DNA from: Nemertoderma westbladi
Lineage: Eukaryota > Animalia > Xenacoelomorpha
DNA length: 35,345 nt
Direction: 5' to 3'
Assembly: GCA_032718475.1 (NCBI GenBank)
Contig: JAUCBJ010006664.1
Coordinates: forward strand, 1 to 35,345
Under the pieces are notes generated by a model, which saw only the letters and a program-made list of their open reading frames with translations, had not been told where the DNA came from and searched no databases. The position numbers and the translations under genes are program-made. Positions 532-24,812 of this stretch are shown here, one piece after another (the first letter of the stretch is position 1; the number at the start of each line of letters is the position of its first letter).

Positions 532-546
532 CCCTTCTACCTCTTA

Positions 547-1160: not shown

Positions 1161-1223
1161 ACTATTATTTATTTTTATTTTATTTTGCAAATTTTATATG
1201 TGGGAAGGGCGTCTCGCCCTCAA

Positions 1224-1278: not shown

Positions 1279-3865
1279 CTAAGGTGCCCCTTCTAGAAGA
1301 CAGCATTTCCCTACAGCTCTCCTGTAAGTTTTTCTGTCCTTCGCACCTATCTTTCCACCTATTCGCACTTCTACCGATCGGACTCTTCCGTCCTCGTCGG
1401 AGTAGGTGCCTACAACTCTCGCCAACCGCCATTGGTTGTTGATGATAGTATCATCCGTGACGATTACGAGATCTCCCTCTCTTAACTCCCTGTTCGGCTT
1501 CCTCCACTTGCTTCGCTTATGGAGCGTGGGTAGGTATTCCTCGACCCACCTCCTCCAATACTCTGCGCTTATTGCTTTAGCGACTTTCCAACTTTGGCGG
1601 GAGTGTATGTCATCTGGGTCTACACCCCGCATATCGATGGTCGCTGGCCTTTCCATCAGGAAATGGCTAGGCGTCAGCACGTCTAACGACTCAGGGTCAT
1701 CATTCTCCGGATATAGCGGTCTGCTATTAATGATCCCCTCGCACTTCGCAAGTACTGTCCGTAAAACGTCCTCAGTGACCATGTGGGTGTTCATTAGCTT
1801 CGTCATTAGACGCTTTGAACTGCCCACCAGTCTCTCGACGCATCCTAGTGTATGTGGTGCATACGGCGTCCGTCTCTCCCACTTTACTTGACGTCTCCTC
1901 ATGGCTGCCTTGACTTCTTCCCCCTCCAAGATGTCCAGGGCCTCTGCCATCTCACTCTCTGCACCCACAAAGTTGGTGCCGTTGTCGCTGTATATCACTG
2001 CGATCGTCCCACCTTTGCGGTCCCTAAACCTTTCTAAGGCGTTAATGAACGCTGATGCGGTTGCATCTTGGGCGAGTTCTATCCCTACCGCCCGCGTATT
2101 GTTGCATACGAAGATAATACCGTAGCGTTTCTCCGTGTGTCGCATCACCTTGATCTTTATCGGCCCGAACATGTCCACACCGCAATGCGTAAATGGCGGG
2201 TCGTGCTGTCTTACCCTACTCGCCGGTAGTGGCGCCATCTCCTGTATGGCTCGCTCCTTCTTCGCCCGTCGGCAGGTCTGGCACTGCCCCACTACCGCTT
2301 TAACCTTCTTCCTTAATTGTTTGACCCAATAGGTCCTCCTTATCTCTGTGAGGGTTCGGTTGGTGCCCCCATGCAATATCGATTTGTGGGAGTCCCATAT
2401 AATCTGGTGGACTATTGGCGATCCTGTAGGAATGATGATGGGTTTCGGTGGTACCACTATGCTGTTGTTGTATCCCACCCTAGAATTCATTACTAGAATC
2501 CCGTCGTCATTGAGTTGTGGCGACAGCGTTATCAGCTCGCTGTCCCGTCGGAGGTGCTGTTGGTTACCGACGCGTTCCACCTCGTCGCCGTAGTTCTTCC
2601 GTTGTTCATAGCGGATCACTGCCTTGGCCGCTCCCTCCAGATCTATGGTTGTCCTGATTTTCTTGTCCTTGCCGACTCCCGCAAGGAAATTCCCAAAGGC
2701 TCTCCAATACGCCACTAGTTTCTTGGTCTTATACCAACTAGAACTGTAGCTGAGGAGTTTATCCGTTGGGTTATCGCACAGTTCCCTTCCTGGTTGCATG
2801 TCCCTAATCTCCCTCACCATCTGGGAGTATATCTCTTCTCCCTCTGAATCTCCCTCTTCTCCTTCTGATACTACTTCCGAGCCCGGGTCCACCTTCCTCA
2901 TCGGCGGCCAGGCCTCCCTATCGCTTAGAAATTGTGGCCCATGTTGCCACAATACTTCCTTCTTCAGGAAAGTGTGGCGTTCCACGCCCCTCGACAGCAA
3001 GTCCGCTGGGTTCTCGTCTGTTGGGCAGTAGTGCCACCTTTCCAGTTCCGTGCTCGCCCTTATTTCGTCCACTCTATTCGCGACGAATATCGGGTATCTC
3101 GTCTTTTCGTTGTGTAGCCAACCAAGCACTACCATGGAGTCCGTCCAGTAGTGTGTCTCCACTATGTTGGGAATAGTATCGACTAGGTAGGCTGTGGCTC
3201 TTACTCCTAGTCTCGCAGCTGTCAATTCTAACTTGGGAACAGATGCTGAATCTGGCGGCGTTGACTTTGCTTTGCTAAAGGCTAGCCTTGGCTTATGAGC
3301 CCCCTCTCGTTGTACTAAGTAGAGTGCCGCTCCGTACGCTTCCAACGACGCGTCGGAGAACATGTGTAGGTCCAGATTTGTCATGTTCCCATCCGGGAAA
3401 TACACCCTCGGCATGTTGTATGTTCCCATCTTCTCCAAGTTTCCTGTCCACTTGCTCCACTGTCTCTTGATTTCCTCTGGTACCTCTACGTCCCACTCAT
3501 CTTTCAATTTGTATACTCTCTTGAGTATCTGTTTCCCCGTGACTAATAATGGGGATGCTAGGCCTAGGGGATCGTATATCCTTGCTATATACGATACATA
3601 GCCCCTCTTCGTGTGGATGTCTGCGCCCTCCTGGCTCAGCTGATACTTCAGTTCGTCTGTCTTTCTATCCCACACGATTCCCAATGCCTTCTGCTGAGAT
3701 TCTGTTCTCTTAATCGCCATGTCCTGCCCTCTGGCTGTTGTGGGGTTATCCATGGTCGATTCTGGTTTCCTGTCCTCTATGGCTTTGATAAATTCTTCCG
3801 AACTGGATTGGAATTTGGTCAGGTTAAAGCCGGATCCTTTTAGGATGTCGCGCGCCCTGTAATAG
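1279..3865 (-). CDS. pol: BEL/Pao Pol fragment: end of RT, Pao RNase H region, HHCC zinc finger, DDE integrase, C-terminal DUF5641-like domain
   Basis: Motifs LGIVWD, IYDPLGLASP, LHMFSDASLEAYGA, VPKLELTAA, YWTDSMVVLGW, FVANRV, WHYCPTDENPADLLSRG, H-x4-H...CQTC, GVDMFGP, SDNGTNF, VERLV, YWRRWVEEYL. About 860 codons without a stop. The ORF-track start at 3888 is probably flanking DNA. Confidence 0.95.
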
Positions 3866-4175
3866 ACAATTACTTTCATTGAATCCAAGGCAAGAGTTTG
3901 TGTTGTATTCTGTGAAAGGAGCTATCAGCTGGGTAAAATGTTATTTGCCTAATGGTCAGAGAGAGAGATCCCACTCTGTAACTTGGCAATTATTGCTTAA
4001 ATCCATTCAGCTGAATGGCACTGTAGAGATTTGATTCTGGGTTACAACTAATTAGCAATCAATGACAAATTCTCGTTGATTTGCACACCGACGTGTAATA
4101 ATTGGCTGAAGTGTGTTCGAGAGCAATGGATATTGAGCTCAACTTAACCGACAAGGTGGGGATGGTAGAGGAGGA

Positions 4176-4201: not shown

Positions 4202-4389
4202 TTCCGTACACTAAAAGTTCTTAAAAATATTTTAAGTTTATTTTTAATTGTATTGCTAGCTACATCAGTTCTTAGTATGGTGACTTAGTTATGATGTCGT
4301 GTTATGGTGATCATCTGTATTGTAGTGGGGGGGAGTGGGGCTGTGCTCGTATAATACTACTGGTATTTACGCTACTTCCTGACGAAGGG

Positions 4390-4935
4390 GTTGTACTTAA
4401 GATTTTATATTTTTTAATTTTTAATATATTATCCGGGTCATGCTTATAATTTAGTAAGAAGATAATTTTTGAAATTTTTTGAAAAGCTTAATTTAGATTT
4501 ATTGCATTTTATAGAACTTGGGATTTTATTCCAAATAGAAGGGCCCTGAAAACTCAAAGATTGCTGGATTGATGTTAGTCTGACTAGTGGTGGACGGTAG
4601 TTGTCCTGAGTAGATGAGCGGGTAGAATAGTTGTGGATAGAGGAGACCTTATTGAAACGAAGGGCGATAGTAGATGTTGGTTTAATAGATTTAGAATTAA
4701 TTTCGTGCATAAATAGGCCTACTTGGTGCTTATATAGAGAGTCGAGAGGTAGAATGCCTAAAGATTTATATAGAGGAGCTGAAGAAGATTGATAATGGCT
4801 GAAAGTTATGTATCTAATGAGATCATTAATTTTAATACGTAGAGGTTTTAGAGTAGAATTATATGTACCTCCCCAAAGTAGAATACCATAGTGCAGATAG
4901 GGATGAATTAAAGAGAAATAGAGTAGACGGAGACC
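4390..4935 (-). mobile_element. 5'-truncated CR1/L2-group LINE, ORF2 C-terminal fragment
   Basis: LYFSLIHPYLHYGILLWG...SAPLYKSLGILPL...HNYSTR...SFQGPSIWNKIP..IK...SFSKNFKNYL matches the typical post-RT C-terminus of this group. Stop at 4444 is followed by an A-rich stretch. The N-terminal ~30 aa of the ORF-track call look unrelated. Confidence 0.85.
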
Positions 4936-5341
4936 ACCAAACAAATTCTCGTAACGTTTCACCGGAGTGTTTAGGCAGAGATAGCGCATAGAGATAGAGA
5001 TAGAGCTACGACAAACATACAACATTGACAACCATGTCTACATAATAAATAACTGGGAATACAGGCCTACTTATTACGGAAGCCCAGAAGGGCCATGTTG
5101 CGTACACACAAAATCTTTGAAATGATTGCATATTTTTTGTGTGTGCGCGACAGTAAAATTATCGTGTTTTATTTGTTGTCGTTTTATTTGTTGTTGTAAT
5201 TATCGAAGGAATATTTCTTGTGCGCGCGGGGGTTGTAGTCAATGGTTAGGCCTAAAATTATACACTATGGTAGGCTACAGCCTGATAGCCGAGCACTAAC
5301 TGCAAGAAATCACCATTTCAAATTCCCCTCCAAATTCACAC

Positions 5342-5344
<3 letters not shown>

Positions 5345-5372
<28 letters not shown>
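5345..5372 (+). repeat. (CA)n microsatellite, junction 1
   Basis: Directly visible; immediately precedes element A1. Confidence 0.95.
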
Positions 5373-6481
5373 CCCTCTTTGTACAACCCCCATTCTGGGG
5401 ACCGTTATTTCTATCGGTCGGTTCTGGGGTCGATATTGATTCCCTTATAACTTCTTTATTCTTGGTTTAAATTAAATTATTTTGGCACCAATAGACTCAG
5501 GAGACCATTTTACGTTATTCTATTGTTTCAAAATTTATCAACTCTAAAGATTGCTAATTTGTTACTCATAGGTTGAACTGGGGTCCTCAAACATACACAT
5601 TTCTCTGGTGTGTTTAAGTTTTTGTCCAATCACGATCCGGTCCCCAGTGTGATTGAGCACATTTCAGGTAGAGTTTACACAATCATTAACTCTACCGAAT
5701 GTTAAACATCAAACAATGTGCTGCCGTGTCAGACGATATGTGATTGGATAACAAATAATGTTCTGGAATATTCTTGAGAAATAGAAAGGGTTCAATGGGC
5801 AGCCATAATCTTAAAATCCTTGTATTCGTAACTAACTCTGCAATATGATTTTGATGTGAGGAAACAATACGTAGATTTCATTTTTGCTACCAATTTTAAC
5901 TAAATATTTTAATATTTTTATTGCCATTTGTGATAATAATCAAAATAACCAATGAACTTGAAATAAATAATTAACTAAACCTAGAAACATTAATTTAATT
6001 TCGCAGTATGTAGTGCCTAATAGTATATTATTGACTAGGCCTACATGATGTTCGTAACATTAATACAGTCGATAATATAGTTTAATACTTTAATTCTGAA
6101 TTACTTAATATATAAGAAGAAAGCAATACATGTATTATTTCGTTTCTAAAATTTATATTTTAATAAGCGATTCATTTATTTCGTTCTGAATATTTAGAAA
6201 AAATGATGTTGATGTAGATTGCATTTTAGCTACAAATTCATTCCGACGACGTCCCCGGATTGTAAATCGTCCCCGGTTTGTCGTTGTGTATTCATGCAAT
6301 TGTCCCCGGTATGAATCAGGTACAACGTAATCCTGTGTAATCCGTATGTAATGTATATTTTTGAATACATATGATTGCATGAACATATCAAGTATGATAG
6401 GGTACTAAGCAAGTTAAATTCTTTAGTACTAAATACATTAAAATGAAAACATACGATACGTTGGCCTAGGTATTATTTTAA

Positions 6482-7902
6482 GGCCCCGGTAGCGCTACAT
6501 GGACATAATTTTTATATTGCCTTGTTAGAGCAACTTCTCATTGTCAGAAACGACCATAACTTTATATGAAGGTCAATGGAAGATTTGTAATTATGAATAA
6601 AATTAAAAAATTCAAATTTTTCAAAACTTTGGAAAAATATTACCAAATTTTTGTATAAAAATCCCAAAACCTTCAGCAGATTCAATCTTGAGTATTTTTC
6701 TTTCTAATTTTTAAAATCGTATCAAAAATGTATGCTCTTTCGATATCTCGAAGCAAAATATCGAAAATTAATTAACAATTGTTATTTTGGTGCTGTTTTT
6801 TGTTTTGTTTATTCTTTAATTTTGACAAATTAAAAATTATCAATATTTTATTCAATTTTGGCCATTTATTTCCATATTGGAATAAAACAATCAGAATTCG
6901 ATGTCGAGATATCTGAAGAGAGCACATCAGAGAACCCCTCTGAGCAAAATTTTTGAAAATTTATTGAAAATTGAATTGTATGAAGCTATTTTTATGCAAA
7001 AAAAATACCATTCCGAGATAATTGCCTTTAAAATTTGAAACTTCCCGCGCCAAAATTGTCTGTTAATATGTGAGAAAGTCTGTCAATATATATCTATCAA
7101 CAAGAAAGCATAAAACCATGCTAAGAATTTTGCTATGGGGGTTTTCCTGATCGCTGATTTAATTTTTGAGGACAGTTCTCAATTTTAATGAAATCTAGTT
7201 TGTCTGACAACATTGAGCTAAAAGTTTAGCTATAGGGGTTTTCCTGGTCGCAGAATTCATTTTCAGTATCAATATTAACATTTTTGATGACATCCAAATT
7301 GTCTGTTTGGCTGTCAGACTGTCGGTTATATTATGACAGACAAACTGACAGCATACAGACAGAACCAACGAGGCCAAATTTGATTAATGACATCAGAAAT
7401 GAAGCCACCGACCACGAAAACCCACACAGATAATTTTATTAGACAGATCGTATGTTTTTTATTGACGGTCAGGTCAGACATACTGACGGACAAACCGACA
7501 GTAAAACGGACAGACAGCAATATCTCGAGAAGAAGGACATATCTTGCTAAACGGTTGTCAAATTTGGAATCTTGATAAAAATCTGCTCTAGATGAAAGTA
7601 AAAAAATTTTCCTGTGCGGAGAGACGGCACCATTATATCATATACTTATGTGCCACCGCAACTCGAAATCCCTCAACCAGCTGGCGAACCACCACCTTCA
7701 CACTTGCACATGAGGCATCCACATAACTTTTAATTTATATTTATTGGTATATTTTTATTATTAAATATGATCTTAACCATTTTAACACTTGTGGCTTATA
7801 ACAGCAATTACCATATTTTGGTGTAATAAATAAATTTTTTTTTACATTTTCTTAATAAAGAAATTTTTTGCAAAAAATTATTGAAGTAGCGCTACCGGGG
7901 CC
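6482..7902. mobile_element. Kolobok-like non-autonomous DNA transposon nested in A1
   Basis: TIR GGCCCCGGTAGCGCTAC / GTAGCGCTACCGGGGCC, flanked by TTAA and GTAA (TTAA in the second copy). GG...CC termini with a TTAA TSD fit Kolobok rather than piggyBac. Confidence 0.75.
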
Positions 7903-8388
7903 GTAAGTGTTTTTCTATAATTATATCAACTTTGTACAGTTCTAGAAAAATTTCATAGGATTAAAAAGTTGAACTTTCTTGGTTATGCCTGGGATTCACA
8001 ATTTCAAGTTAAGTGCAAACAAGTTTCTATGTATAAAGTTGATATAATTGGAGAAAATTACAAACATACTTATAAGAAAGAAGCACTTTATAGCGTTATG
8101 ACATTTTATAACACTCGCTTCGTTCAGATAATAAACACACTCTGGCCGACCTCTAAAAAGTGCAACTTTTTACAAAGTGTATTTATTAATAGTAAATAAA
8201 ATCCATGTATAAAATAATTGTAAATACATGGATGCTAACGTGTTTATGGGGTTGAAAAGGAAGGAGAAAAGGTATTGAATACAAGAAGAAGAAGGAGGAA
8301 TAACACGGATGTTATCAAATCTTACCCAAAAAGAAGCAGAGCAACTAGAAGATTGGACAATAAAGCAGAGATACAGAGCGATATTGAA

Positions 8389-11300
8389 GGTTAAAGAAGT
8401 GGGTGGGGCAGGGTTGTCTGATTTTAAAGGAGTGAGTGGGACAGGGTTGTCGGAGGTTGAAGGAGTAGGGTGGGGCAGGGTTGTCTGATTTTAAAGGAGT
8501 GAGTGGGACAGGGTTGTCGGAGGTTGAAGGAGTAGGGTGGGGCAGGGTTGTCTGATTTTAAAGGAGTGAGTGGGACAGGGTTGTCGGAGGTTGAAGGAGT
8601 AGGGTGGGGCAGGGTTGTCGGAGGTTGAAGGAGTGGGTGGGGCGAGGTCGTTGGAGGTTAACGGAGTGGATGGGGCAGGGTTGTCGGAGGTTGAAGGAGT
8701 GGATGGAGCAGGGTCATTGGAGGTTAAAGAAGTGGATGGAGCAGGGTTGTCGGTGTTTAAAAGAGTGAGTGGGGCAGGGATGTCGGAGGTTGAAGGAGTG
8801 GATGGGGCAGGGTCATTGGAGTTTAAAGGAGTGGCTGGAGCAGGGTCAATGGAGTTTAAAGGAGGGGGTGGGGCAGGGTCGTCTGAGTTTAAAGGAGTGG
8901 ATGGGGCAGGGTTGTCGGAGTTTAAAAGAGTGAGTGGGGCAGGGTTGTCGGAGGTCGAAGGAGTGGGTGAAGCAGGCTCGTTGGAGGTTAACGGAGTGGA
9001 TGGGGCAGGGTCATTGTAGTTTAAAGGAGTGGCTGGAGCAGGGTCAATGGAGTTTAAAGGAGGGGGTGGGGCAGGGTCGTCTGAGTTTAAAGGAGTGGAT
9101 GGGGCAGGGTTGTCGGAGTTTAAAAGAGTGAGTGGGGCAGGGTTGTCGGAGGTCGAAGGAGTGGGTGAGGCAGGCTCGTTGGATGTTGAAGGAGTTGGTG
9201 GGGCAGGGTCATTGGAGTTTAAAGGAGTGAGTAGGACAGGGTTGTCGGAGTTGAAAGGAGTGGATGGGGCAGGGTCATTGGAGTTTAAAGGAGTGGCTGG
9301 AGCAGGGTCAATGGAGTTTAAAGGAGGGGGTGGGGCAGGGTCGTCTGAGTTTAAAGGAGTGAGTGGGGCAGGGTTGTCGGAGGTTGAAGGAGTGGGTGGG
9401 GCAGGGTCATTTGAGTTTAAAGGAGTGGGTGGGGCAGGGTCATTTGAGTTTAAAGGACTGAGTGGGGCTGGGTTGTCGGAGGTCGAAGGAGTGGGTGGGG
9501 CAGGGTCATTTGAGTTTAAAGGAGTGAGTGGGGCAGGGTTGTCGGAGTTTAAAGAAGTGGATGGGGCAGGGTCATTGGAGTTTAAAGGAGTGGGTGGGGT
9601 AGGGTTGTTGGAGTTTAAAGGAGTGGGTGGGGCAGGGTTGTCGGAGTTTTAAGGAGTGAGTGGAGCAGGGTTGTCGGAGGTCGAAGGAGTGGGTGGGGCA
9701 GGGTCATTGGAGTTTAAAGGAGTGAGAGGGGCAGGGTTGTCGGAGTTTAAAGGAGTGAGTGGGGCAGGGTTATCGGAGGTTGAAGGAGTGGGTGGGGCAG
9801 GGTCGTTGAAGGATGAAGGAGTGGGTGGGGCAGGGTCGTTGAAGGTTGAAGAAGTGGGTGGCGCAGGGTCGTTGAAGGTTGAAGGAGTGGGTGGGGCAGG
9901 GTTGTCGGAGTTTAAAGGAGTGAGTAGGACAGGGTTGTCGGAGTTTAAAGGAGTGGCTGGAGCAGGGTCAATGGAGTTTAAAGGAGGGGGTGGGGCAGGG
10001 TCGTCTGAGTTTAAAGGAGTGGATGGGGCAGGGTTGTCGGAGTTTAAAAGAGTGAGTGGGGCAGGGTTGTCGGAGGTCGAAGGAGTGGGTGAGGCAGGCT
10101 CGTTGGATGTTGAAGGAGTTGGTGGGGCAGGGTCATTGGAGTTTAAAGGAGTGAGTAGGACAGGGTTGTCGGAGTTGAAAGGAGTGGATGGGGCAGGGTC
10201 ATTGGAGTTTAAAGGAGTGGCTGGAGCAGGGTCAATGGAGTTTAAAGGAGGGGGTGGGGCAGGGTCGTCTGAGTTTAAAGGAGTGAGTGGGGCAGGGTTG
10301 TCGGAGGTTGAAGGAGTGGGTGGGGCAGGGTCATTTGAGTTTAAAGGAGTGGGTGGGGCAGGGTCATTTGAGTTTAAAGGACTGAGTGGGGCTGGGTTGT
10401 CGGAGGTCGAAGGAGTGGGTGGGGCAGGGTCATTTGAGTTTAAAGGAGTGAGTGGGGCAGGGTTGTCGGAGTTTAAAGAAGTGGATGGGGCAGGGTCATT
10501 GGAGTTTAAAGGAGTGGGTGGGGTAGGGTTGTTGGAGTTTAAAGGAGTGGGTGGGGCAGGGTTGTCGGAGTTTTAAGGAGTGAGTGGAGCAGGGTTGTCG
10601 GAGGTCGAAGGAGTGGGTGGGGCAGGGTCATTGGAGTTTAAAGGAGTGAGAGGGGCAGGGTTGTCGGAGTTTAAAGGAGTGAGTGGGGCAGGGTTATCGG
10701 AGGTTGAAGGAGTGGGTGGGGCAGGGTCGTTGAAGGATGAAGGAGTGGGTGGGGCAGGGTCGTTGAAGGTTGAAGAAGTGGGTGGCGCAGGGTCGTTGAA
10801 GGTTGAAGGAGTGGGTGGGGCAGGGTTGTCGGAGTTTAAAGGAGTGAGTAGGACAGGGTTGTCGGAGTTTAAAGGAGTGGATGGGGCAGGGTCATTGGAG
10901 TTTAAAGGAGTGGATGGGGCAGGGTTGTCGGAGTTTAAAAGAGTGAGTGGGGCAGGGTTGTCGGAGGTCGAAGGAGTGGGTGAAGCAGGCTCGTTGGAGG
11001 TTAACGGAGTGGATGGGGCAGGGTCATTGGAGTTTAAAGGAGTGGCTGGAGCAGGGTCAATGGAGTTTAAAGGAGGGGGTGGGGCAGGGTCGTCTGAGTT
11101 TAAAGGAGTGGATGGGGCAGGGTTGTCGGAGTTTAAAAGAGTGAGTGGGGCAGGGTTGTCGGAGGTCGAAGGAGTGGGTGAGGCAGGCTCGTTGGATGTT
11201 GAAGGAGTTGGTGGGGCAGGGTCATTGGAGTTTAAAGGAGTGAGTAGGACAGGGTTGTCGGAGTTGAAAGGAGTGGATGGGGCAGGGTCATTGGAGTTTA

Positions 11301-11630
11301 AAGGAGTGGCTGGAGCAGGGTCAATGGAGTTTAAAGGAGGGGGTGGGGCAGGGTCGTCTGAGTTTAAAGGAGTGAGTGGGGCAGGGTTGTCGGAGGTTGA
11401 AGGAGTGGGTGGGGCAGGGTCATTTGAGTTTAAAGGAGTGGGTGGGGCAGGGTCATTTGAGTTTAAAGGACTGAGTGGGGCTGGGTTGTCGGAGGTTGAA
11501 GGAGTGGGTGGGGCAGGGTCATTTGAGTTTAAAGGAGTGGGTGGGGCAGGGTCATTTGAGTTTAAAGGACTGAGTGGGGCTGGGTTGTCGGATGTTGAAG
11601 GAGTGGGTGGGGCAGGGTCGTTGGAGGAGG
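8389..11630 (+). repeat. 33-bp G-rich minisatellite (about 98 units) with 924-bp higher-order duplication
   Basis: Unit approximates GGGGCAGGGTTGTCGGAGTTTAAAGGAGTGAGT. ORFs at 9656 and 10580 are offset by 924 bp = 28 x 33. Confidence 0.95.
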
Positions 11631-11662
11631 ATAGGGTTTGGGGGCAAGGTTAACTGCATCTG

Positions 11663-12203
11663 TGGGGCGAGCCACGAAGTTGGCGGAGCCTTAGCGAATT
11701 GACACTGTTAGGGGGTGGGTCAATTTATGCAAATAGTTGTCGTCGTCGTCGTTGTCGTCGTCGTTGTCGTCGTCGTCGTTGTCGTCGTCGTCGTCGTTAC
11801 GATTTTGACATGCTAATAACTTTGTCGGATTTAAAGCTGCCAAGTTGAAAATTTGTAGGTATCAATATGAGCAAAAGTTGAGATTTTTGAGAGACTTTCA
11901 GACACCATCAGTGCAATGGTCTCCCGCTAGAGGGCCACATGTCTAAACATTAAATGCCCTCCCATTTCTTTGCTTTTAATCCGTTTAAGCTGAAACTTGG
12001 CAGATATGTATTAGACCATTAGCTGTGACTTTCAAAGGAGGCGAATCCATCTGCAGTTCTCCAGTCTGCCGCTAGAGGGCCAAAGGTCTGAAAGTGAAAA
12101 CAACTAACGACGACAACTATTTGCATAAATTGACCCACCCCCTAACAGTGTCAATTCGCTAAGGCTTCGCCAACTTCGTGCTGCGCGAAGTCCCCACTTC
12201 GTG
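11663..12203. mobile_element. ~540-bp non-autonomous element with 74-bp subterminal inverted repeats, (GTC)n microsatellite and 3' hairpin
   Basis: 11673-11746 is the reverse complement of 12107-12180 with one mismatch. Hairpin CGAAGT-CCCC-ACTTCG at 12186-12201. Absent at the equivalent site of A2 (about 21937). Confidence 0.85.
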
Positions 12204-13198
12204 TTGATGTTATGCAAACCATGCGTTTATGGCATGACTTATTTGATACATCAGATTTAACTACCACAAATGTTCTTGATATTGTTAAGGAGTTTACATG
12301 GTGCAGCAACTACGCTGAACTTGCAGATTGCATCAGTGAGCAACATGTCACCAATCCGGCATTGAGTAACTGTGACATGGTCTGTGGTGATTCTCAAGAA
12401 GATAAAAACAATCTATGCAATTCTGATAGGCCTAGTGATTCGGAAAATGTTTCTGGTAAAGATGATATGGATGTATTTCCAAGTAACTGAATTTGAATTT
12501 GAGTCAGAATCCGCTTATACAATTTATAGCAAGAAAACGAAACGTAACGTTCTTAATGAATGTCCTTCATGAACCACTTTCAATTGTATATTGTAAATGT
12601 ATATCAAGTTGTTTATCAGGAAAATTTGTCATAAATTATATATTCGAGCGATTCGGGCGCCATTCTGCTTTAAAACACGATTACTAAAGTATTTGATTTC
12701 CAAATTGGCACATTCGACATATATATTCTACTTACTTAAAATTAATCTCTACCTTTTAGGTGACAATGAATTCCTAGTCCCCATTTTGAACCATGCCACA
12801 CATACTGCTGCGTTTGGTCAAAATGTTAAATTAGATCACAAAATATTAATTACATTGTAGATTCCAGTCCCCACATTGAACAACAGCACCCATACTACAA
12901 CGTGTGTTTGGAATGTTATATTAACTGTATGGAAAAGGGGACACTTGAAACTATCGCATTATACTGGGGTCAGTGAAATTTTCAAAACTCAAACACAAAT
13001 TTACACACGTATTTGACAGGTTTGGGTGGAACAGGGGACATCGCCGAAATGATCCGAAATTTTCAGAATCCATTAATTTTAGTACGTAGATTCCATTTTT
13101 GATATCATTTCATTCCGGGGACGTCCCCGGATTGTAGATCGTCCCCGGTTTGTCGCTGTGTATTCATGCAATTGTCCCCTGTTTGAACCAGTTCACCT

Positions 13199-13226
<28 letters not shown>
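13199..13226 (+). repeat. (CA)n microsatellite, junction 2
   Basis: Directly visible between A1 and B. Confidence 0.95.
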
Positions 13227-13230
<4 letters not shown>

Positions 13231-14029
13231 CTGCAAATCGTATATTATCCTAACACCAACACATTTACGTTTTTTACGCGACAGTACTAACACCTAATGA
13301 CACTGATTTAATTGTGCTAACACAACCAGTTCAATGAATGACCGCTAGTAGTGCACACCACACATCAATTCCCCTAACAGGGTAATAACTAGTGTTTAAA
13401 TTGCCGGCTTCTGAACATTCATTAAGGAAATCTGTATAAAAGCAATATTGGCTGGAATATATGACTATAATTTAATTTCTAGAATACAACTATTGTGCTA
13501 ACAACAACCAATAGTAGTATGCTGATAGCAACTACTGACAACTAAATGCGGTGTAATATAATATGCAATACTGCACATCGCATTATAGCAAAATTAATGC
13601 AACATTTATTTCCTACGAGATTGACACCGGAATTATCAGTTATTCTGTTAGCCGAAGTAATGAAAGAAGTGGGGTGCTGCACTGTGCTGCACTACTGTGC
13701 TGCACTACTGTGCTGCACTAACAGACACAAATGTCGCGTTAGCTCCATGCGCGTTAGATCCCACCGAATTAGATACCACTGCAATGCCTGTCATTAAGTC
13801 TTGCGTCGTTAGGTTTCGCCGTATTTTGCAGAAATAATTTGTACTTACTGTATATTTGCAGCTGATTTCTAGTATAAATAAGTATAACCAGAGTTATTGA
13901 CTTTCGTTTTTTGTTTTGGTTAAAATAACATGTTGGTGGACCTATCGCTGCATGACCTTATGACACAGAAACATCGCGCTAGACTTAAAGCAGAAGGTCT
14001 TACTACACTGGAATTTATATTTACGCTCT

Positions 14030-14657
14030 TCACACTGTACTGTAGTTCAGTTATTAGGAAGCGCAATATTAGCCAGATAAAATACACACTCACCAATATT
14101 GGTTACACCTTGCCATATAATTGATTACACTGTAGTTCAGTTGTTAGCACAATATTAGTTAGCCAGATAATATAAACACACACTCACCAATATTGGTTAC
14201 ACCTTATCATATAATTGATTACACTGTAGTACAGTTAGCACAATATTACTTAGCCAGATATACACACAGACACCAATATTTGTTACACCTTGTTATATAA
14301 TTGATTACACTGTAATTCAGTTGTTAGCACAATATTAGTTAGCCAGATGATATAAACACACACTCACCAATATTGGTTACACCTTATCATATAATTGATT
14401 ACACTGTAGTACAGTTAGCACAATATTACTTAGCCAGATAATATACACACAGACACCAATATTTGTTACACCTTGATATATAATTGATTACACTGTAGTT
14501 CAGTTGTTAGCACAATAAGGGTTAGCCAGATAATATAAACACACACTCGCTAATATTGGTTACACCTTGTCATATAATTGATTGCGCTGTAGTTTAGTTG
14601 TTAGCACAATATTAGTTAGTCAGATAATATAAATCCACACTCGCTAATATTGGTTAC
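14030..14657. repeat. ~90-bp satellite (alternating 94 and 86-89 bp monomers, ~180-bp dimer), left part
   Basis: The anchor TTGATT recurs at 14121, 14215, 14301, 14395, 14484 and 14578. Confidence 0.9.
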
Positions 14658-16156
14658 TACTACTACTAGAATCGGCATGCTGCATTACAGCTGCATTTTT
14701 AAGAATGCTGTGCCGGCTTATCGACAACTCCCTATCACCCATGACATTTGCTAGATCATCCGCATCTTCAAGGCCAGTGTCCTTTAAGATGCGTCTCAAG
14801 AAAGTCATGGGCTTGTCCACCATGCTTATTCACTCCATGAGGCTGCCAAAGTACAAGATTATGCACTGGCTGGTCCTCACGGCGATAGCAATGTCCTGCA
14901 AAGCGGAGGCGATTTTGTTCTAGTGTCAAGCTTGGGGGAACCAATGAGACACCTCCAATGTTATATAGTGTCTGGTTGGAGATGTGTGCATTGTACTTGA
15001 CACAATGAACCCGGCGTAGCATTCTTGTGAAAGTGCCATCCAGAGATTTCGTGTCCTCCGCAGTTAGAGCCCAGCATGGACTCCCATAGAGGAGTACTGG
15101 AACTACTGCTCCTCTAAATAATCGGACCTTAAGTGTCCGATTAATTCTCGGTGACTTCCAAATCCTGGAAAGCCTATTAAAGGTTGCCCATGCCTTTCCC
15201 TTACGTATTCGTAGGTCCTCATCTGACTTCCGGATACATGATCCCAGGTAACAGAAGTCATCCACATGCTCAAGCATACCATCTTTTGAGCTTATGCTCA
15301 TCCGATCAGAGACTTGCTGAGGACTTTCAAAGTTAACTGTCAAAATTTTGGTCTTTCTGGAGTTAATAAAAAGACACTAGAAGCAGCATGATCTAATGAG
15401 CTGAGGAGCCGTTGGGCTCCCTCTAGTGATTCTGAGAGTACTCCTAAGTCATCAGCAAAGTCTAGATCAGTTAGGTACTTGGCAGGATTTCCTCGACTTC
15501 TGGAGCCAGTAGGTGGAGTTATCAGCACCCCATCATCATTATGATGATCTAAGGACATGCGTAGAACATAGTCAACAACAATTATTAACAAGAATGGTGC
15601 AATTGTGTCTCCATGGAGGACGCCCTATAACACTTCAAATGGTTCTGTGTCACCGTCAACAGTAGACACAAATGTTGTCGAACCATCGTATACTGATCGG
15701 ATTGCTGCAATAATTTCATCAGGAATCCCATATAATGAAAGTATGCTGAACATACGTGAGCGAGAGACTGATTCAAAGGCCTTGAAGAAGTCAACAAAGA
15801 TAACAGCCAGATGCCTGTCTTTCTTTTTTGATAACTCTTCAATTATCCTTCTAAGTGCCAAAATGGGCTCCATGGTCCCACGACCTTTACGGAACCCATT
15901 CTGATTTCCACGGAGCAGTCTCTCAATGGGATCCCTGATGCGATTAAATAGAATTCTATTGTATAGCTTTGCAGCAATCGAGATCAATGAGATTCCCCGA
16001 AAAGAACCATAGAGTGTTAGGTTGCCCTTCTTGGGACCTGCACCAACTTATTTGTTTTCATTTCTTGTGGGACTCTTGTTGTTCGGTACATGTCTACTAT
16101 GATGGGATAGATGAGCTTTAAACACTCAGGTATTTTAAAGAACTAGAACTAGCTCT
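14658..16156 (-). mobile_element. 5'-truncated RTE-clade LINE with (TAG)n tail and 13-bp TSD; RT frame disrupted
   Basis: PKKGNL..FRGISLISIAAKLYNRIL, QNGFRKGR, FVDFFKAF, DLDFADDL, FCYLGS, RLRFAGHCYR. Contains a stop and a frameshift. Tail CTACTACTACTA on plus at 14657-14668. TAATATTGGTTAC is duplicated at 14645-14657 and 16157-16169. Confidence 0.9.
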
Positions 16157-16445
16157 TAATATTGGTTACACCTTGTCATATAATTGATTACACTGTAGTT
16201 CAGTTGTTAGCCCAATAAGGGTTAGCCAGATAATATACACACACTCGCTAATATTGGTTACACCTTGTCATATAATTAATTGCGCTGTAGTTTAGTTGTT
16301 AGCACAATATTAGTTAGCCAGATAATATAAACACACACTCGCTAATATTGGTTACACCTTGTCATATAATTGATTACACTATAGTTCAGTTGTTAGCACA
16401 ATGTTAGTTAGCCAGATTATATAGGTACACACTCGTCAATATTTG
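16157..16445. repeat. ~90-bp satellite, right part
   Basis: The same monomer resumes in phase after the RTE insertion, about 3 units. Confidence 0.9.
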
Positions 16446-16624
16446 TTTTATTATAGATACATTTAATTTTAGATGTTAGATGAAAAATAGTTTGCCACCC
16501 ATTTGATACGACTACAGCTTTATTAACTTTATGAAATGTATCTAACATTAGAATTGTTACACACATATGTGAATTTTTGGAATCTAAAAGACCTATTATC
16601 CAATACATGGAAATGATACATGAT

Positions 16625-16757
16625 ACACCTAACAGTAATCTTATGGAAACAACACACCTAACAGTAATCGGGTGGAAATAGTACACCTACACCTAACAGT
16701 AATCGGGTGGAAGCGATACACCTAACAGTAAACGGGTGGAAGCGACACACCTAACAT
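16625..16757. repeat. ~29-bp tandem repeat ACACCTAACAGTAATCGGGTGGAA (4-5 units)
   Basis: Directly visible; contains the CTAACA motif of segment B. Confidence 0.8.
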
Positions 16758-16981
16758 GTATATTTACAATATATTCACATTGCAGCTGCATGGGGGCGCA
16801 AGATAAAAAAACACACTGAAAATTTATCTGGCAAATTAAATTCACCTAACATAGCTTGAAACTTCGCGAGATGATTTTTTTCGTAATTTGAGACAACTGT
16901 TAGCGGAAAGTGTTAGCACAATTGCGAAGTTAGCACAATGATTGTGGGAATCTGGCGAAATGTTAGGTGTATTACGCGTTT

Positions 16982-16982
<1 letters not shown>

Positions 16983-17060
<78 letters not shown>
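16983..17060 (+). repeat. (CA)n microsatellite, junction 3
   Basis: About 39 CA units between B and A2. Confidence 0.95.
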
Positions 17061-17063
<3 letters not shown>

Positions 17064-18184
17064 CTCTTTGTACAACCCCCATTCTGGGGACCGTTATTTC
17101 TATCGGTCGGTTCTGGGGTCGATATTGATTCCCTTATAACTTCTTTATTCTTGGTTTAAATTAAATTATTTTGGCACCAATAGACTCAGGAGACCATTTT
17201 ACGTCATTCTATTGTTTCAAAATTTATCAACTCTAAAGATTGCTAATTTGTTACTCATAGGTTGAACTGGGGTCCTCAAACATACACATTTCACTGGTGT
17301 GTTTAAGTTTTTCTCCAATCACGACCCGGTCCCCAGTGTGATTGAGCACATTTCAGGTAGAGTTTACACAATCATTATTAACTCTACCGAATGTTAAACA
17401 TTTAACAATGTGCAGCGTGTCAGACAATATGTGATTGGATAACAAATAATGTTCTGGAATATTCTTGAGAAATAGAAAGGGTTCAATGTGCAGGCAGCCA
17501 TAATCTTCAAACCCTTGTATTCGTAACTAACTCTGCAATATGATTTTGATGTGAGGAAACAATACGTAGATTTCATTTTGCTACCAATTTTAACTAAATA
17601 TTTTAATATTTTTATTGCTATTTGTGATAATAATCAAAATAACCAATGAACTTGAAATTAATAATTAACTAAACCTAAGAAACATTCATTTAATTTCGCA
17701 GTATGTAGTGCCTAATAATAGTATATTATTGACTACATGATGTTCGTAACATTAATACAGTCGATAATATAGTTAAATGCTTTAATTCTGATTTTCTTAA
17801 TATATAAGAAGAAAACAATACATGTATTATTTCGTTTCTAAAATTTATATTTTAATAAGCGATTCATTTATTTCATACTGATTATGGAGAAAAAATGATG
17901 TTGATGTAGATTGCATTTTAGCTACTAATTCACTCCGGGGACGTCCCCGGATTGTTGATCGTCCCCGGTTTGACGTTGTGTATTCATGCAATTGTCCCCG
18001 GTATGAATCAGGTACAACGTAATCATGTGTAATCCGTATCCGTATGTAATGTATATTTTTGAATACATATGATTGCATGAACATATCAAGTAGGATTGGG
18101 TACTAAGCAAGTTAAATTCTTTAGTACTACAGTAAATACATAAAAATGAAAACATACGATACGTTGGCCTAGGTATTATTTTAA

Positions 18185-19414
18185 GGCCCCGCGGTAGCGC
18201 TACATGGACATGATTTTTATATTGCCTTGTTAGAGCAACTTCTCATTGTCAGAAACGACCATAACTTGGTATGAAGGTCAATGGAAGATTTGTAATTATG
18301 AATAAAAATAAAAAATTCAAATTTTTCAAAAATTTGGAAAAATATTAACAAATATTGACAAATTTTTGGACAAAAATCCAAAAACCTTCATCAGATTCAA
18401 TCTTGAGTATTTTCCTTTCTAATTTTTCAAATCGCATCAAAAATGTATGCTCTTTCGATATCTCGAAGCAAAATTTCAAAAATTAATTAACAATTGTCAT
18501 TTTGGTGCTGTTTTTTGTTTTGTTTATTGTTTAATTTTGACAAATTAAAAATTATAAATATTTTATTCAATTTTGGCCAATTATTTCCTTATTGGAATAA
18601 AACAATCAGAATTCGAGATCGAGATATCTGAAGAGAGAGCACATCAGAGAACCCCTCTGAGCAAAATTTTTGAAATTTTATTGAAAATTGAATTGTCTGA
18701 AGCTATTTTTATGCAAAAAAAAACCATTCCGAGATAATTGCCTTTAAAATTTGAACCTTCCCGCGCAAAAATTGTCTGTTAATATGTGAGAAAGTTTGTC
18801 AATATATAGGTATCAACAAGAAAGCATAAACCATGCTAAAAATTTTGCTATGGGGGTATTCCTGGTAGCTGATTTCATTTCTGAGGTCAGTTTTCAATTT
18901 TAATGAAATCTAGTTTGTCTGAATGTTTGTCTGTCGGTCTTTCTGACCATCCGACTTATCTGTCTGTCAAATATTAGAAAAAGGCACAGCATTGAGCTAA
19001 AAGTTTAGCTATAGGGGTTTTCCTGGTCGCAGAATTTATTTCGAGTGTCAATTTTAACATTTGATGACTTCCAAATTGTCTGTTTCGCTGTCAGACTGTC
19101 GGTTATATTTTGACAGACAGACTGATAGGCATACAGACAGAACCGACGAGGGCAAATTTGATTAATGACATCAGAAATGAAGTCACCGACCACGAAAACC
19201 CACACAGGGAATTTTATTAGACAAATCGTATGTTTTTTATTGACGGACAGACATACTGACGGACAAACCGACAGTAAAACGGACAGACAGCAATATCTCG
19301 AGAAATAGGACAGATCTTGCTAAGCGGTTTTCAAATTTGGAATCTTGATAAATCTGCTCTAGATGAAATTAAAAAATTTTTGAAAAAAATTATTGAAGTA
19401 GTGCTACCGGGGCC
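18185..19414. mobile_element. Kolobok-like element nested in A2
   Basis: TTAA-GGCCCCGCGGTAGCGCTAC ... GTAGTGCTACCGGGGCC-TTAA; same site as in A1. Confidence 0.78.
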
Positions 19415-19764
19415 TTAAGTGTTTTTCTCTAATTCTCTAATTATATCAACTTCGTACAGTTCTAGAAAAATTGTTATAGGATCAAAAAGTTGAACTTTCT
19501 TGGTTATGCCTGGGATTCACAATTTCAAGTTAAGTGCAAACAAGTTTCTATGTATAAAGTTGATATAATTGGAGAAAATTATAAACATACTTATAAGAAA
19601 GATGCACTTTATAGCGTTATGACATTTTATAACACTCACTTCGTTCAGATAATAAACACACTCTGGCCGACCTCTAAAAAGTGCTACTTTTTACAAAGTG
19701 TATTAATAGTAAATGAAATCAATGTATAAAATAATTGTAAATACATGGATGTTAACTTGTTTAT

Positions 19765-22300
19765 GGGGTTGAAAAGGAAGGAGAAAAGGTATTGAATACA
19801 AGAAGAAGAAGGAGGAATAACACGGAAGTTATCAAATCTTACCCAAAAAGAAGCAGAGCAACTAGAAGATTGGACAATAAAGAAGAGTTACAGAGAGATA
19901 TTGAAGTGCCTAAGTTGTCGGAGTTTAAAGGAGTGAGTGGGGCTGTGTCGCGTGAGTTTAAAGGAGTGAGTGGGGCAGGGTTGTCGGAGGTTGAAGGAGT
20001 GGGTGGGGCAGGGTCATTTGAGTTTAAAGGAGTGGCTGGGGCAGGGTTGTCGGAGTTTAAAGGAGTGAGTGGGGCAGGGTTGTCGGAGTTTTAAGTAGTG
20101 AGTGGGACAGGGTTGTCGGATGTCGAAGGAGTGGGTGGGGCAGGGTCATTGGAGTTTAAAGGAGTGAGTGGGGCAGGGTTTTCCGAGGTTGAAGGAGTGG
20201 GTGGGGCAGAGTCGTTGGAGGTTGAAGGAGTGGGTGGGGCGAGATCGTTGGAGGTTGAAGGAGTGGGTGGGGCAGGGTCATTGGAATTTAAAGGAGTGAG
20301 TGGGGCAGGGTTGTCGGAGTTTAAAGGAGTGAGTGGGGCAGGGTTGTCGGAGTTTAAAGGAGTGAGTGGGGCAGGCTTGTCGGAGGTTGAAGGAGTGGGT
20401 GGGGCAGGGTTTTGAGTTTAAAGGAGTGAGTGGGGCAGGGTTGTCGGAGGTCAAAGGAGTGGGTGGGGCAGGGTCATTTGAGTTTAAAGGAGTGAGTGGG
20501 GCAGGGTTGTCTGAGTTTAAAGGAGTGAGTGGGGCAGGGTTGTCGGAGGTTGATGGAGTGGGTGGGGCCGGGTCATTTGAGTTTAAAGGAGTGAGTGGGG
20601 CAGGGTTGTCGGAGGTTGAAGGAGTGGGTGGGGCAGGGTCATTTGAGTTTAAAGGAGTGAGTGGGACAGGGTTGTCGGAGGTCAAAGGAGTGGGTGGGGC
20701 AGGGTCATTTGAGTTTAAAGGAGTGAGTGGGGCAGGGTTGTCTGAGTTTAAAGGAGTGAGTGGGGCAGGGTTGTCGGAGGTTGAAGGAGTGGGTGAGGCA
20801 GGGTCATTTGAGTTTAAAGGAGTGAGTGGGGCAGGGTTGTCGGAGGTTGAAGGAGTGGGTGGGGCAGGGTCATTTGAGTTTAAAGGAGTGAGTGGGGCAG
20901 GGTTGTCCGAGGTTGAAGGAGTGGGTGGGGCAGAGTCGTTGGAGGTTGAAGGAGTGGGTGGGGCGAGATCGTTGGAGGTTGAAGGAGTGGGTGGGGCAGG
21001 GTCATTGGAATATAAAGGAGTGAGTGGGGCAGGGTTGTCGGAGTTTAAAGGAGTGAGTGGGGCAGGGTTGTCGGAGGTTTAAGGAGTGGGTGAGGCAGGG
21101 TCGTTGAAGGTTGATGGAGTGGGTGGGGCAGGGTCGTTGAAGGTTGAAGGAGTGGGTGGCGCAGGGTTGTTGAAGGTTGAAGGAGTGGGTGGGGCAGAGT
21201 CATTGGAGTTTAAAGGAGTGAGTGGGGCAGGGTCGTCTGAGTTTAAAGGAGTGAGTGAGGCAGGGTTTTCGGAGGTTGAAGGAGTGGGTGGGGCAGGGTC
21301 ATTTGAGTTTAAAGGAGTGAGTGGGGCAGGGTTGTCGGAGGTCGAATGAGTGGGTGGGGCAGGGTCATTTGAGTTTAAAGGAGTGAGTGGGGCAGGGTTG
21401 TCTGAGTTTAAAGGAGTGAGTGGGGCAGGGTTGTCGGAGGTTGAAGGAGTGGGTGGGGCAGAGTCATTTGAGTTTAAAGGAGTGAGTGGGGCAGGGTTGT
21501 CGGAGGTTGAAGGAGTGGGTGGGGCAGGGTCATTGGAGTTTAAAGGAGTGGCTGGGGCAGGATTGTCGGAGTTTAAAGGAGTGGGTGGGGCAGGGTCATT
21601 GGAGTTTAAAGGAGTGAGTGGGGCAGGGTTGTCGGAGGTTGAAGGAGTGGGTGGGGCAGGGTCATTGGAGTTTAAAGGAGTGGCTGGGGCAGGATTGTCG
21701 GAGTTTAAAGGAGTGGGTGTGGCAGGGTTGTCGGAGGTTGAAGGAGTGAGTGGGTCAGGGTCGTCTGAGTTTAAAGGTGTGAGTGGGGCAGGGTTGTCGG
21801 ATGTTGAAGGAGTGGGTGGGGTAGGGTTGTCCGAGATTGAAGGAGTGGGTGGGACGAGGTCGTTGGGGGTTGAAGGAGTGGATGGGGCAGGGTCGTTGGA
21901 GGAGGATAGGGTTTGGGGGCAAGGTTAACTGCGTCTGTTGTTGTTATGCAAACCATGCGTTCATGGCATGACTTATTTGATACATCAGATTTAACTACCA
22001 CCAATGTTCTTGATATTGTTAAGGAGTTTACTTTGTGCAGCAACTATGCTGAACTTGCAGATTGCATCAGTGAGCAACATGTCAGCAATCCGGCATTGAG
22101 TAACTGTGACATGGTCTGTGGTGATTCTCAAGAAGATAAAAACAATCTATGCAATTCTGATACTGATTCGGGAAATGTTTCTGGTAAAGATGATATGGAT
22201 GTATTTTCAAGTAACTGAATTTGAATTTGAGTCAGAATCAGCTTATACAAATTATAGCAAGAAAAGGAAACGTAACGTTCTTAATGAATGTCCTTCATGA
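19765..22300 (+). pseudogene. Possible decayed ORF of family A: basic N-terminus, 11-aa Gly-rich repeats, acidic region ending near KKRKR
   Basis: The frame NTRRRRRNNTEVIKSYPKRSRATRRLDNKEELQRDIE runs in frame into GAGLSEFKGVS repeats. A protein-like acidic segment follows the array. Several stops and frameshifts; no recognised domain. Confidence 0.35.
19913..21905 (+). repeat. 33-bp G-rich minisatellite (about 60 units)
   Basis: Same unit as 8389-11630 with a different order of variants. Confidence 0.95.
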
Positions 22301-22988
22301 ATCACTTTCAACTGTATATTGCAAATGTATATCAAGTTGTTTATCAGGAAAATTTGTCATAAAATTATATATTCGATTTGATTTCTTATTGTTTGTTGAA
22401 ATAATAGATAATAGAAATGAAATGAATGAAATAATAGCAGTGAGGGGCGCCATTCTGCTTTAAAACACGATTACTAAAGTATTTGATTTCCAAATTGGCA
22501 CATTCGACATATATATTCTACTTACTTAAAATTAATCTCTACTTTTTAGGTGACAATGAATTCCTAGTCCCCATTTTGAACCATACCACACATACTGCTG
22601 CGTTTGGTCAAAATGTTAAATTAGATCACAACATATTAATTACATTGTAGATTCCAGTCCCCACATTGAACAACAGCACCCATACTACAACGTGTGTTTG
22701 GAATGTTATATTAACTGTATGGAAAAGGGGACACTTGAAACTATCGCATTATACTGGGGTCGGTGAAATTTTCAAAACTCAAACACAAATTTACACACGT
22801 ATTTGACAGGTTTGGGTGGAACAGGGGACATCGCCGAAATGATCTGAAATTTTCAGAATCCATTAATTTTAGTACGTAGATTCCATTTTTGATATCTTTT
22901 CATTCCGGGGATGTCCCCGGATTGTAGATCGTCCCCGGTTTGTCGCTGTGTATTCATGCTATTGTCCCCTGTTTGAACCAGTTCACCT

Positions 22989-22995
22989 ACACACC

Positions 22996-23055
<60 letters not shown>
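22989..23055 (+). repeat. (CA)n microsatellite, junction 4
   Basis: Directly visible between A2 and the right arm of the outer TIR element. Confidence 0.95.
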
Positions 23056-23059
<4 letters not shown>

Positions 23060-24239
23060 TGGGGGTTCTAACAGTCGCGCGCACACCCCACGTATTCCGT
23101 CGCACACACACGATAAATTTCAAATATGCAATCATTTCTAAGATTTTGTGTGTGCGCAACATGGCCGGCCCTTCTGGGTTTCCGTAACTTCTACAATAGG
23201 GTTGGTGCGCGAAAAAACTGTTGGGCTAGAAACAATTGAATAAGGGATAACAAGGTGCCCAGAATCGAGTGGCGGGGAGTGTTTTGTGTTTTTTATATGG
23301 TGGGACGAGTCCCGATTATACATTTTGCACATTTTTTGTGCCTTTTTTTAATGTTTTTTTTTTTAATATGTTTGCAGGGTTAAGACCCCAAGTTTCATAA
23401 TAGATGGCACAGTACCGATATAAGTTTTTGCTATTAAATATACAATTTACAGTGTTTTTTTAAGCTGAACTATCAAAACAGTCGAGTTTAAGATAATTAA
23501 ATTATTTCATATGACATCATAATATTTCCGTTTTGTTTTATTTCAGCCAAGTATCTTTATGGTTTCTAAATTTACAATTGAAGAAATTCACTTTAAATCT
23601 TTGTTATCAAGTGAGACATAAAATATATATCATTCTACCTTTTTGGAGTTGCAGCATCGATTTATTAAAATGTAAGTTGCAAAGGCCTCTACTCAATTAC
23701 TATTTTTTATTTTCTGCCAGGATGAATGCGAAACAAATTATATATCGGCCTATTATATTTCTTTATTTACAGAATAACCTCGCCTCAAATAGAATTAGAT
23801 AGAACCATATCGAATGGAATAAATAAACTGGTCAGTTATTTAAACGTTCGAAAAGTTACTGGGGGCTGTTTCAGCTGTCAGATCAGAGGAACTGAATCTG
23901 AACAGATGAAAAACTAATAACGCCACAATGAGGATTGAAACCATGCAGAAAGTTATTAGTTCAGATGTTGTTACAACAAACTCTCCTTCCTAAGTATTCC
24001 ATAGAAGATCAAATAATATAAATGTATCTCTATGTTATTTTAAATGAACACAAATTATTATTGTCATCAATGTAAAACGATTAATCATAAATATAAAAGA
24101 AGTAGATCGTACCAACAACGTCATAATGTAACCAACTGCAATAGCATAAACTCCATCTCCACAAATAAGTCTCTATCTACCGCCAATCAATATCTTCGGT
24201 TTCTTCCGCATTGCCTCATCAAATTCGAGATATACCTGG

Positions 24240-24812
24240 TATCCCTGCGCCGTCGTCCAGCCCGAGCCCGCTACGCCATTTCGTCCGCGACCCTCTAAGG
24301 CAATGGGAAGCCCCGCGTATGATAGCCAGCTGGACCCGGGTACGGACCCACCCCATCACCATGCTGTAGGGTCTCCCCCACGTCCGGTGGAGCTTCTGGG
24401 CAATGGTCCTGAGGAGCTTGTCCGCTTGGGGGGCCAACACTCCGTCGCAGGAGGCAACGTATGGCGAGAAGTCGCCACGCCGCGCCCAGACTGCGTCGGA
24501 GTAGAGCCGCTTCTTCTCGTCTTCGGCTGACTCGAGGACTGACATCGGGGAGCGCCCCGCATAAGACCCGGCGTCAAGGTTAACCAACCTGATGTCGATC
24601 AACGCCTGGGTCTGCGGGTTAAACGCCCCCCGAATGCCCACGTCACACCGAAGACCAGATGCTCCGTCGACCCCCTGCTGCTCCCGAACGATCGGCTCGC
24701 AAGTAACATTGCGGGGCCCGAACGCTGCCGCCGCCAGGTCGCCCACAACGTCCCGTAGCTCATTGTGGCGCTGGATGACGAGACCTCCTTTCTTGCAATT
24801 TAACCCGTGGTT
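24240..24812 (-). mobile_element. Fragment of a CRE-clade non-LTR retrotransposon: C-terminal restriction-like endonuclease domain
   Basis: H.LNCKKGG...RHNELRD...EP...RCDV..RG...IDIR...EDEKKRLY...F.P...YS...VRTR...CLRGSR. GC-rich island in AT-rich flanks; the ORF-track N-terminus is flank. Confidence 0.8.

Follow-up and report, generated by a model that had tools for sequence, protein, structure and literature searches.

Candidate Crypton-like transposons in a train of CA microsatellite tracts in Nemertoderma westbladi

Contig JAUCBJ010006664.1 of the xenacoelomorph Nemertoderma westbladi (assembly GCA_032718475.1) carries a train of three large elements joined by CA microsatellites. The window analyzed spans positions 1–35,345 of this contig, and coordinates given without a locus name refer to it. 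The elements lie on the plus strand: A1 (5373–13198; 7826 bp with nested inserts, non-coding), B (13227–16982; 3756 bp), and A2 (17062–22988; 5927 bp, with the same ends as A1). They are bounded by four plus-strand CA tracts, which a run search and Tandem Repeats Finder place at 5345–5372, 13199–13226, 16983–17061, and 22989–23055. These are the only runs of (CA)5 or longer in the window; (TG)5 runs number zero, and outside the tracts the longest CA or TG run has eight letters. An initial annotation of this DNA had stated that the only long CA tracts, all of one strand, bound the three elements, and that A1 and A2 are diverged copies whose homology stops at the tracts. The run counts agree, as does self-BLAST, in which the match between A1 and A2 keeps one orientation and reaches the tracts on both sides. 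Its reading of the first letters after the last CA, CCCCT for A and CCCTT for B, was equally correct. Tract length ranges from 28 to 79 while the element ends stay fixed. The six ends all abut same-strand CA, which fits a constant terminal repeat; such a repeat is not delimitable inside a microsatellite. The fourth tract has a short C-run near its start (22989–22998) that resembles the letters at A's left junction and may be an excision footprint or a result of point changes.

Left of their 33-bp array, A1 and A2 are 95.5% identical over 2739 columns; right of it they are 95.9% identical over 1025 columns. Only one change falls in the first 200 bp and six in the last 372, and each copy has private inserts. 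The array is a minisatellite of 98 copies in A1 (8391–11626, plus strand) and occupies 19914–21901 in A2. Two nested elements lie within A. The first, with 21-nt inverted ends, is present in both copies (6478–7906 in A1) and contains a very high-copy repeat at about 7010–7600 plus a 259-bp insert found only in A1. The second, with 74-nt inverted repeats and approximate edges, is restricted to A1 (11664–12190). The left end of A reads TGTA, 13 nt, GGGGAC (5380–5402), a build that recurs in metagenome ends. The right end reads GTCCCC, 12 nt, TTCA, 3 nt (13174–13198), its TTCA being one mismatch away from the TRCA arm; read inwards it becomes TGAA, 12 nt, GGGGAC. A cluster of GTCCCC motifs at 6214–6319, about 0.9 kb (0.87–0.92 kb) from the left end, is 88% like the right subterminal 106 bp. 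With the two orientations taken together, A1 has 14 GTCCCC/GGGGAC motifs and A2 has 13; B has none. A Pfam scan of seven A frames returned no family at E 0.1, there being no Dada profile among those scanned. The longest frame outside the array (21937–22215) has no Atlas match and three matches to repeat-rich proteins, which we judge to be artefacts; the long frames open over the 33-bp array, found on either strand, we regard as a side effect of its repetition.

Element B has its own motif: CTAACA/TGTTAG occurs 27 times in B, three times in A1, and once in A2. Its left end reads TGCA, 13 nt, CCTAACA (13232–13255), and its right end TGTTAGG, 13 nt, TGCA (16961–16984), the final two letters being common to end and tract. 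Of 24 positions, the left end and the inverted right end share 15; among 20,000 shuffles, 67 score as high. A 94-bp tandem array (14039–16447) is split into two parts (14039–14657 and 16157–16447) by a nested, broken reverse transcriptase fragment of the non-LTR type (lacking long terminal repeats) on the minus strand (14660–16150, edges approximate; RVT_1, E 1.2e-13) with a short three-base-repeat tail. This fragment is a passenger in the array and not the mobilizer of B.

A and B thus share an end build, TGYA, N12/13, motif, in which the motif is GGGGAC in A and CCTAAC in B and recurs in each family's subterminal arrays. The arms lie 5–7 letters from the tract on the left and 0–3 letters from it on the right, so the ends are asymmetric. 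Neither element carries long repeats, inverted or direct, at its termini, with end alignments over 60 and 300 nt falling within the range of shuffles, and over 150 nt the ends of A resemble those of B no better than shuffles do. An enzyme gene is likewise absent from both.

The flanks of the train, which the initial annotation had passed over, are inverted relative to each other: positions 5074–5151 and 23099–23187 match at 83% in self-BLAST. The train therefore interrupts a small host element around the CA tract; its left half (5074–5344) has the first inverted-repeat arm, and its right half (23056–23187) carries the inverted match to it. Taking the train out on paper would leave a host of about 0.45 kb with one central CA tract.

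To judge by public contigs, A and B are both multi-copy families. The data are five public runs, each in contig form. Three of the runs hold 42–46% of the words compared; X1 and X2 are one sample, and X5 has next to none of these words and leaves A's left end uncovered. Among contigs over 4210–8380, the depth, here read as contig depth and not as copy number, is 423 (X1) and 535 (X3) for the left end of A, and 116 (X1), 10 (X2), and 28 (X3) for the flank. At 5516–6902, 18 of the 26 variants listed carry A2's letter; the other eight agree with neither A1 nor A2, which means that A has additional variants. The contig for A's left end in X1 runs 31 letters beyond 5386; the element explains 13, and the 18 extra letters were counted, not read. 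The main contigs for B's left end (13219–13670; depth 764 in X1 and 152 in X2, against 13–15 for long, apparently single-copy contigs in X2 and X3) match all eight CA letters offered and continue 19–20 letters further, and in X1 this is the sole contig across B's first 60 bp. The weight of this continuation comes from how contigs are built, since contigs of a randomly flanked repeat should stop where the repeat does. The main B contig is absent from X3, possibly through a filter effect. A diverged, single-copy form of B's left end (depth 13 in X2 and 15 in X3) begins at 13226 and carries 1.6–1.7 kb of other sequence; it confirms the boundary of B but not the CA target. One X1 contig links the interior of B, at 13296, to letters resembling the host's right half, so there may be further loci at which B adjoins the host family.

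The A-type end extends to other genomes. A pattern of 12 CA letters, TGT, and TGGGGAC, loosely spaced, was found at 118 or more metagenome loci, from which 100 distinct ends were compared. Among the matches listed, to which the counts on these ends refer, 32 of the 100 distinct CA-anchored ends have TGTA ahead of GGGGAC at a spacing of 12 nt (14 ends) or 13 nt (18 ends). At each other spacing seen TGTA occurs one to four times, and the control TGT[CGT] occurs four to nine times throughout. The right-end pattern lies inside six of 32 A-type loci. Five of these two-ended copies are about 125–145 bp long and have same-strand CA-rich DNA past the end that was not selected for; four belong to one family at different flanks and one to another. 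In the sixth, L084, no CA follows, and at L025 the CA is short or broken on one side. The exact 24-mer of A's left end has no match in metagenome contigs. In viral contigs the A-type pattern gave ten chance matches, all outside CA tracts, and the B-type pattern none; a B-type search of the retrieved metagenome loci gave one chance-like match. Three side observations concern these ends. At L050 (807–1227, minus strand), tandem units of about 125 bp each open with an A-type end preceded by a few CA repeats, a run that reads as a second train. In the left ends of L053, L058, L077, L025, L064, and L087, the first three of the eight letters before TGTA vary from one like end to another and the last five are steadier, and the variable letters look like a few bases carried over from a previous site. 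The L037 group varies instead at the fourth and fifth letters before the TGTA arm.

Some of the longer A-type loci hold a candidate enzyme. At L062, an A-type end is followed 6 kb inside by a 451-aa frame, P0004, with a weak phage-integrase match (E 0.001). When the loci and the window were searched with profiles of this tyrosine recombinase (YR) family, significant matches were confined to L062, L071, L037, and L053. Among the matches listed, a YR lies inside four of eight A-type ends that have at least 1.5 kb of inner DNA, versus none of 23 other loci (Fisher p 0.002); at 2 kb of inner DNA the figures are three of seven versus none of 19 (p 0.013). All four genes sit on the inner side and point towards the end, and they fall within 54.6 kb of inner DNA, whereas the remaining 348 kb has none. 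The ends that bear them are mutually unlike (50–60% over 300 nt), though the hosts may still be few. At L062 and L053 the layout is that of A, namely the end, a GTCCCC cluster from 0.78 kb inside, and a tandem array, followed there by the YR gene; A has the cluster and the array but lacks the gene.

Forty-eight relatives of P0004, some of them from fish and some from an oyster, an ark clam, an annelid, and a brittle star, were found among longer proteins, and many of the fish relatives carry a SET domain. All 24 aligned sequences keep the catalytic residues R149, K197, R269, H295, and Y304. The structure model has a predicted local distance difference test score (pLDDT) of 77.6. A wide structural search with it placed XerH first (Z 11.4, root mean square deviation 3.2, 143 residues aligned), then XerD and XerA; residues 391–451 weakly match homeodomains (Z 6.4–6.6). 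No sequence match to P0004 was found in the PDB, and Atlas links it to a tyrosine-recombinase cluster at 0.91. A search of genome contigs with the YR alignment gave a single locus, L129, a spliced gene with no visible ends, and the same search of viral contigs gave no relative. The L129 contig is filed in a bacterial metagenome-assembled genome, and its product is 37% identical to P0004; it is likely host DNA in the bin. L037 also has a second, different frame at 517–1185 (plus strand), P0005, which has no Pfam match and joins the C-terminal part of a P0004-type YR. We take P0005 to be YR-like from its motifs; L037 could represent two genes fused by a deletion or a two-YR element.

Judging from these sequence comparisons, we consider it probable that A1, B, and A2 are non-autonomous Crypton-like DNA transposons inserted successively into one CA microsatellite by a YR encoded elsewhere. 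That both families are mobile and target CA seems very probable. The contigs, the metagenome ends, and the YR profiles support the earlier proposal of two non-autonomous families with a CA target, a fixed orientation, and an enzyme encoded outside the window. A mechanism can be proposed in which the YR would bind the two inverted arms, with its C-terminal homeodomain-like part aiding on the subterminal motifs. The element would be excised as a circle whose junction, as we reconstruct it, would consist of two TGYA arms separated by roughly 8 nt of asymmetric spacer; this junction would then recombine with a CA tract. The asymmetry of the spacer would account for the fixed orientation. Because each insertion would leave CA on both sides, the site would be reusable, and trains could grow. 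The different motif of B would call for a related YR of other binding specificity, which is the weakest step of the proposal; the sole link of B to the YR is its end build.

Several observations weigh against this interpretation. On the side of the enzyme, the Pfam score of P0004 (19.3 bits) is under the curated cut-off of 27.1, the His of its HxxR motif is replaced by Thr, and Foldseek with its model gave nothing at E 0.001 or better, the best rows all being Xer recombinases. The YR gene of L037 is broken, and at L071 many inserts separate the end from the gene. On the side of the elements, the profile search of the window detected no YR remnant in A, in B, or elsewhere; no YR flanked by both ends was found among the metagenome contigs, and no B-type end beside a YR. 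A has only the short end build and the layout in common with the YR loci, since over 300 nt their identity of about 52–55% is at background level. In addition, A's right arm carries a mismatch, the diverged B copy fails to match the eight CA letters, and contig depth is no measure of copy number, given that the ratio of A to B differs between X1 and X2. Finally, the arm-and-spacer reading is post hoc.

An unlikely alternative, yet the one that survives best, is that the train arose partly by local duplication, either by unequal exchange between CA tracts that copied one A or by segmental duplication of a whole block with breakpoints in microsatellites. A1 and A2 are indeed neighbors in the same orientation, the CA tracts offer homology for unequal exchange, and contigs cannot separate dispersed from clustered copies; even the L050 run of CA-separated units of about 125 bp could be a plain tandem duplication. 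However, A1 and A2 differ by 4–4.5% and have private inserts, although their termini are nearly identical. Further A variants are present among the reads, the flanks are less deep than the elements, and duplication alone leaves the conserved end build in other genomes unexplained.

It is less likely again that the CA-targeting A and B owe their movement to a DDE transposase of the cut-and-paste kind (EnSpm/CACTA-like, Dada-like, KDZ, or Mutator-like) with the subterminal motifs as its binding sites. Several DDE-type groups typically have arrays of subterminal motifs, which speaks for such an enzyme; Dada-type DDE transposases carry CCCC and CCHC fingers. EnSpm/CACTA and Mutator-like elements are defined by terminal inverted repeats, and neither A nor B has one above shuffled controls. 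What lies inside A-type ends, in each of four dissimilar end families, is a YR gene, and no DDE transposase was named when 14 frames from A-type loci were scanned with Pfam. Dada, which the initial annotation had named as a precedent, lacks terminal inverted repeats, has short subterminal inverted repeats, is target specific, and forms tandem insertions, but it uses a DDE enzyme and inserts in small-RNA genes with 6- to 7-bp duplications (PMC3706591, PMC8869645). The available portions of these papers describe small-RNA-gene targets and no CA target, and the site here is a CA tract in an inverted-repeat host; the comparison with Dada does not fit. MuTAnT and its kin, plant DNA elements in TA microsatellites, resemble A and B in being flanked by a dinucleotide repeat, and they show that Mutator-like elements can target such repeats; they differ in their Mutator-like transposase and in their symmetric TA target, as the accessible text describes them (PMC4486113). 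The symmetry of that target implies no fixed orientation.

The third alternative, that the CA tracts are element tails grown by slippage and that insertion occurs at short CAC-like sites anywhere, is quite improbable: it would suit the diverged B copy that lacks a CA flank and metagenome copies such as L025 with short or broken CA on one side, but neighboring elements share single tracts, the outer tracts both join halves of one host, and the ends stay fixed over tract lengths of 28 to 79. A non-LTR mechanism, of which the initial annotation named examples, has nothing pointing to it, and the evidence favors a tyrosine recombinase. The CA-targeting non-LTR elements Waldo and Mino encode their own reverse transcriptase and endonuclease and show variable 5′ truncation. 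A contains no reverse transcriptase, the ends of A1 and A2 are fixed, and the reverse transcriptase piece of B is nested in an array.

Within known systems, the YR-moved elements proposed here come closest to CryptonV, a group of animal YR-encoding DNA transposons of which some families insert specifically in microsatellites (PMC8869645, citing Kapitonov and Jurka 2012, Repbase Reports 12:2034, in the part of the text available to us). In keeping with that behavior, all six ends in the window adjoin same-strand CA, and the main B-left contigs and the five two-ended relatives show CA as well; the diverged B copy is an exception. A and B most likely work like CryptonV and would be candidate members of it, a known kind that is thinly described. 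CryptonV was compared by its description, taken from accessible text; relative to it, A and B are large and non-coding, have two different subterminal motifs, and lie in a train at one CA site. The available parts of PMC4455052, PMC5753468, PMC12730594, PMC9004415, and PMC8969392 add no further detail on CryptonV. Cryptons more broadly (CryptonF, S, A, and I) lack terminal inverted repeats, have a short constant sequence repeated directly at the two ends as recombination substrate, have non-autonomous derivatives, and have been proposed to move through a circle; YR sites consist of inverted arms around a 6- to 8-bp spacer (PMC3212892, accessible portion). A and B likewise have neither terminal inverted repeats nor long direct repeats, only short inverted arms. 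They differ in that Cryptons target short motifs, whereas the target of A and B would be a microsatellite. The active algal element CryptonF-1_cRei, as far as the available text describes it, ends in CACCG, inserts at CAYCG, a short motif resembling that end, and leaves the target behind when it excises (PMC9977147). The C-termini also differ: according to the accessible text of PMC3212892, GCR1_C is present in CryptonF and a C-terminal domain is missing from CryptonA and I, whereas the YR family inside A-type ends has a homeodomain-like C-terminus and, in fish relatives, often a SET domain. Endogenous nimaviruses, according to the available part of PMC10871703, also show YR-linked insertion in a simple repeat, and in concatemers or episomes this repeat links their ends. 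They are, however, viruses of several hundred kilobases that target (TAACC)n, and their YRs are reported to be distinct from Crypton YRs.

Our literature searches, with Repbase Reports and most subscription journals outside their scope, found no account of the end rule, the pairing with an enzyme, or the trains; in the searchable literature, microsatellite-targeting Cryptons are a name and one sentence. Sequence-specific DNA transposons are, to our knowledge, few in eukaryotes. The case described here offers candidates both for the recombination arms and for the enzyme family, the latter with natural members of full length, together with cargo of up to 8 kb, which makes the proposed circle-and-recombine mechanism of Cryptons directly testable. 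A bolder proposal, which we advance tentatively and would not yet call probable, is that a widespread family of animal YR transposons, with a loxP-like site (short inverted arms and the asymmetric spacer) and cargo of 0.13 to 8 kb, inserts directionally and repeatedly in CA microsatellites, its subfamilies told apart by a subterminal motif that a homeodomain-like tail would read and queueing at one self-renewing site. If the circle-and-recombine mechanism holds, some CA tracts would be landing pads that collect and renew insertions, with a bearing on microsatellite markers and on how genomes grow locally, and animals would have in this enzyme an integrase whose target is abundant and non-coding.

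The window also holds elements outside the train, all on the minus strand. A 913-aa open frame at 29735–32476 resembles a non-LTR endonuclease plus reverse transcriptase by reading of its translation. A frame at 24219–24896, with no Pfam match, resembles in motif the restriction-like endonuclease end of a CRE-clade element. On the other side of the train, an 880-aa open frame at 1279–3921 belongs to a BEL/Pao LTR retrotransposon (Peptidase_A17, integrase) and is accompanied by a tandem array of 30- to 36-bp units at 555–1134.

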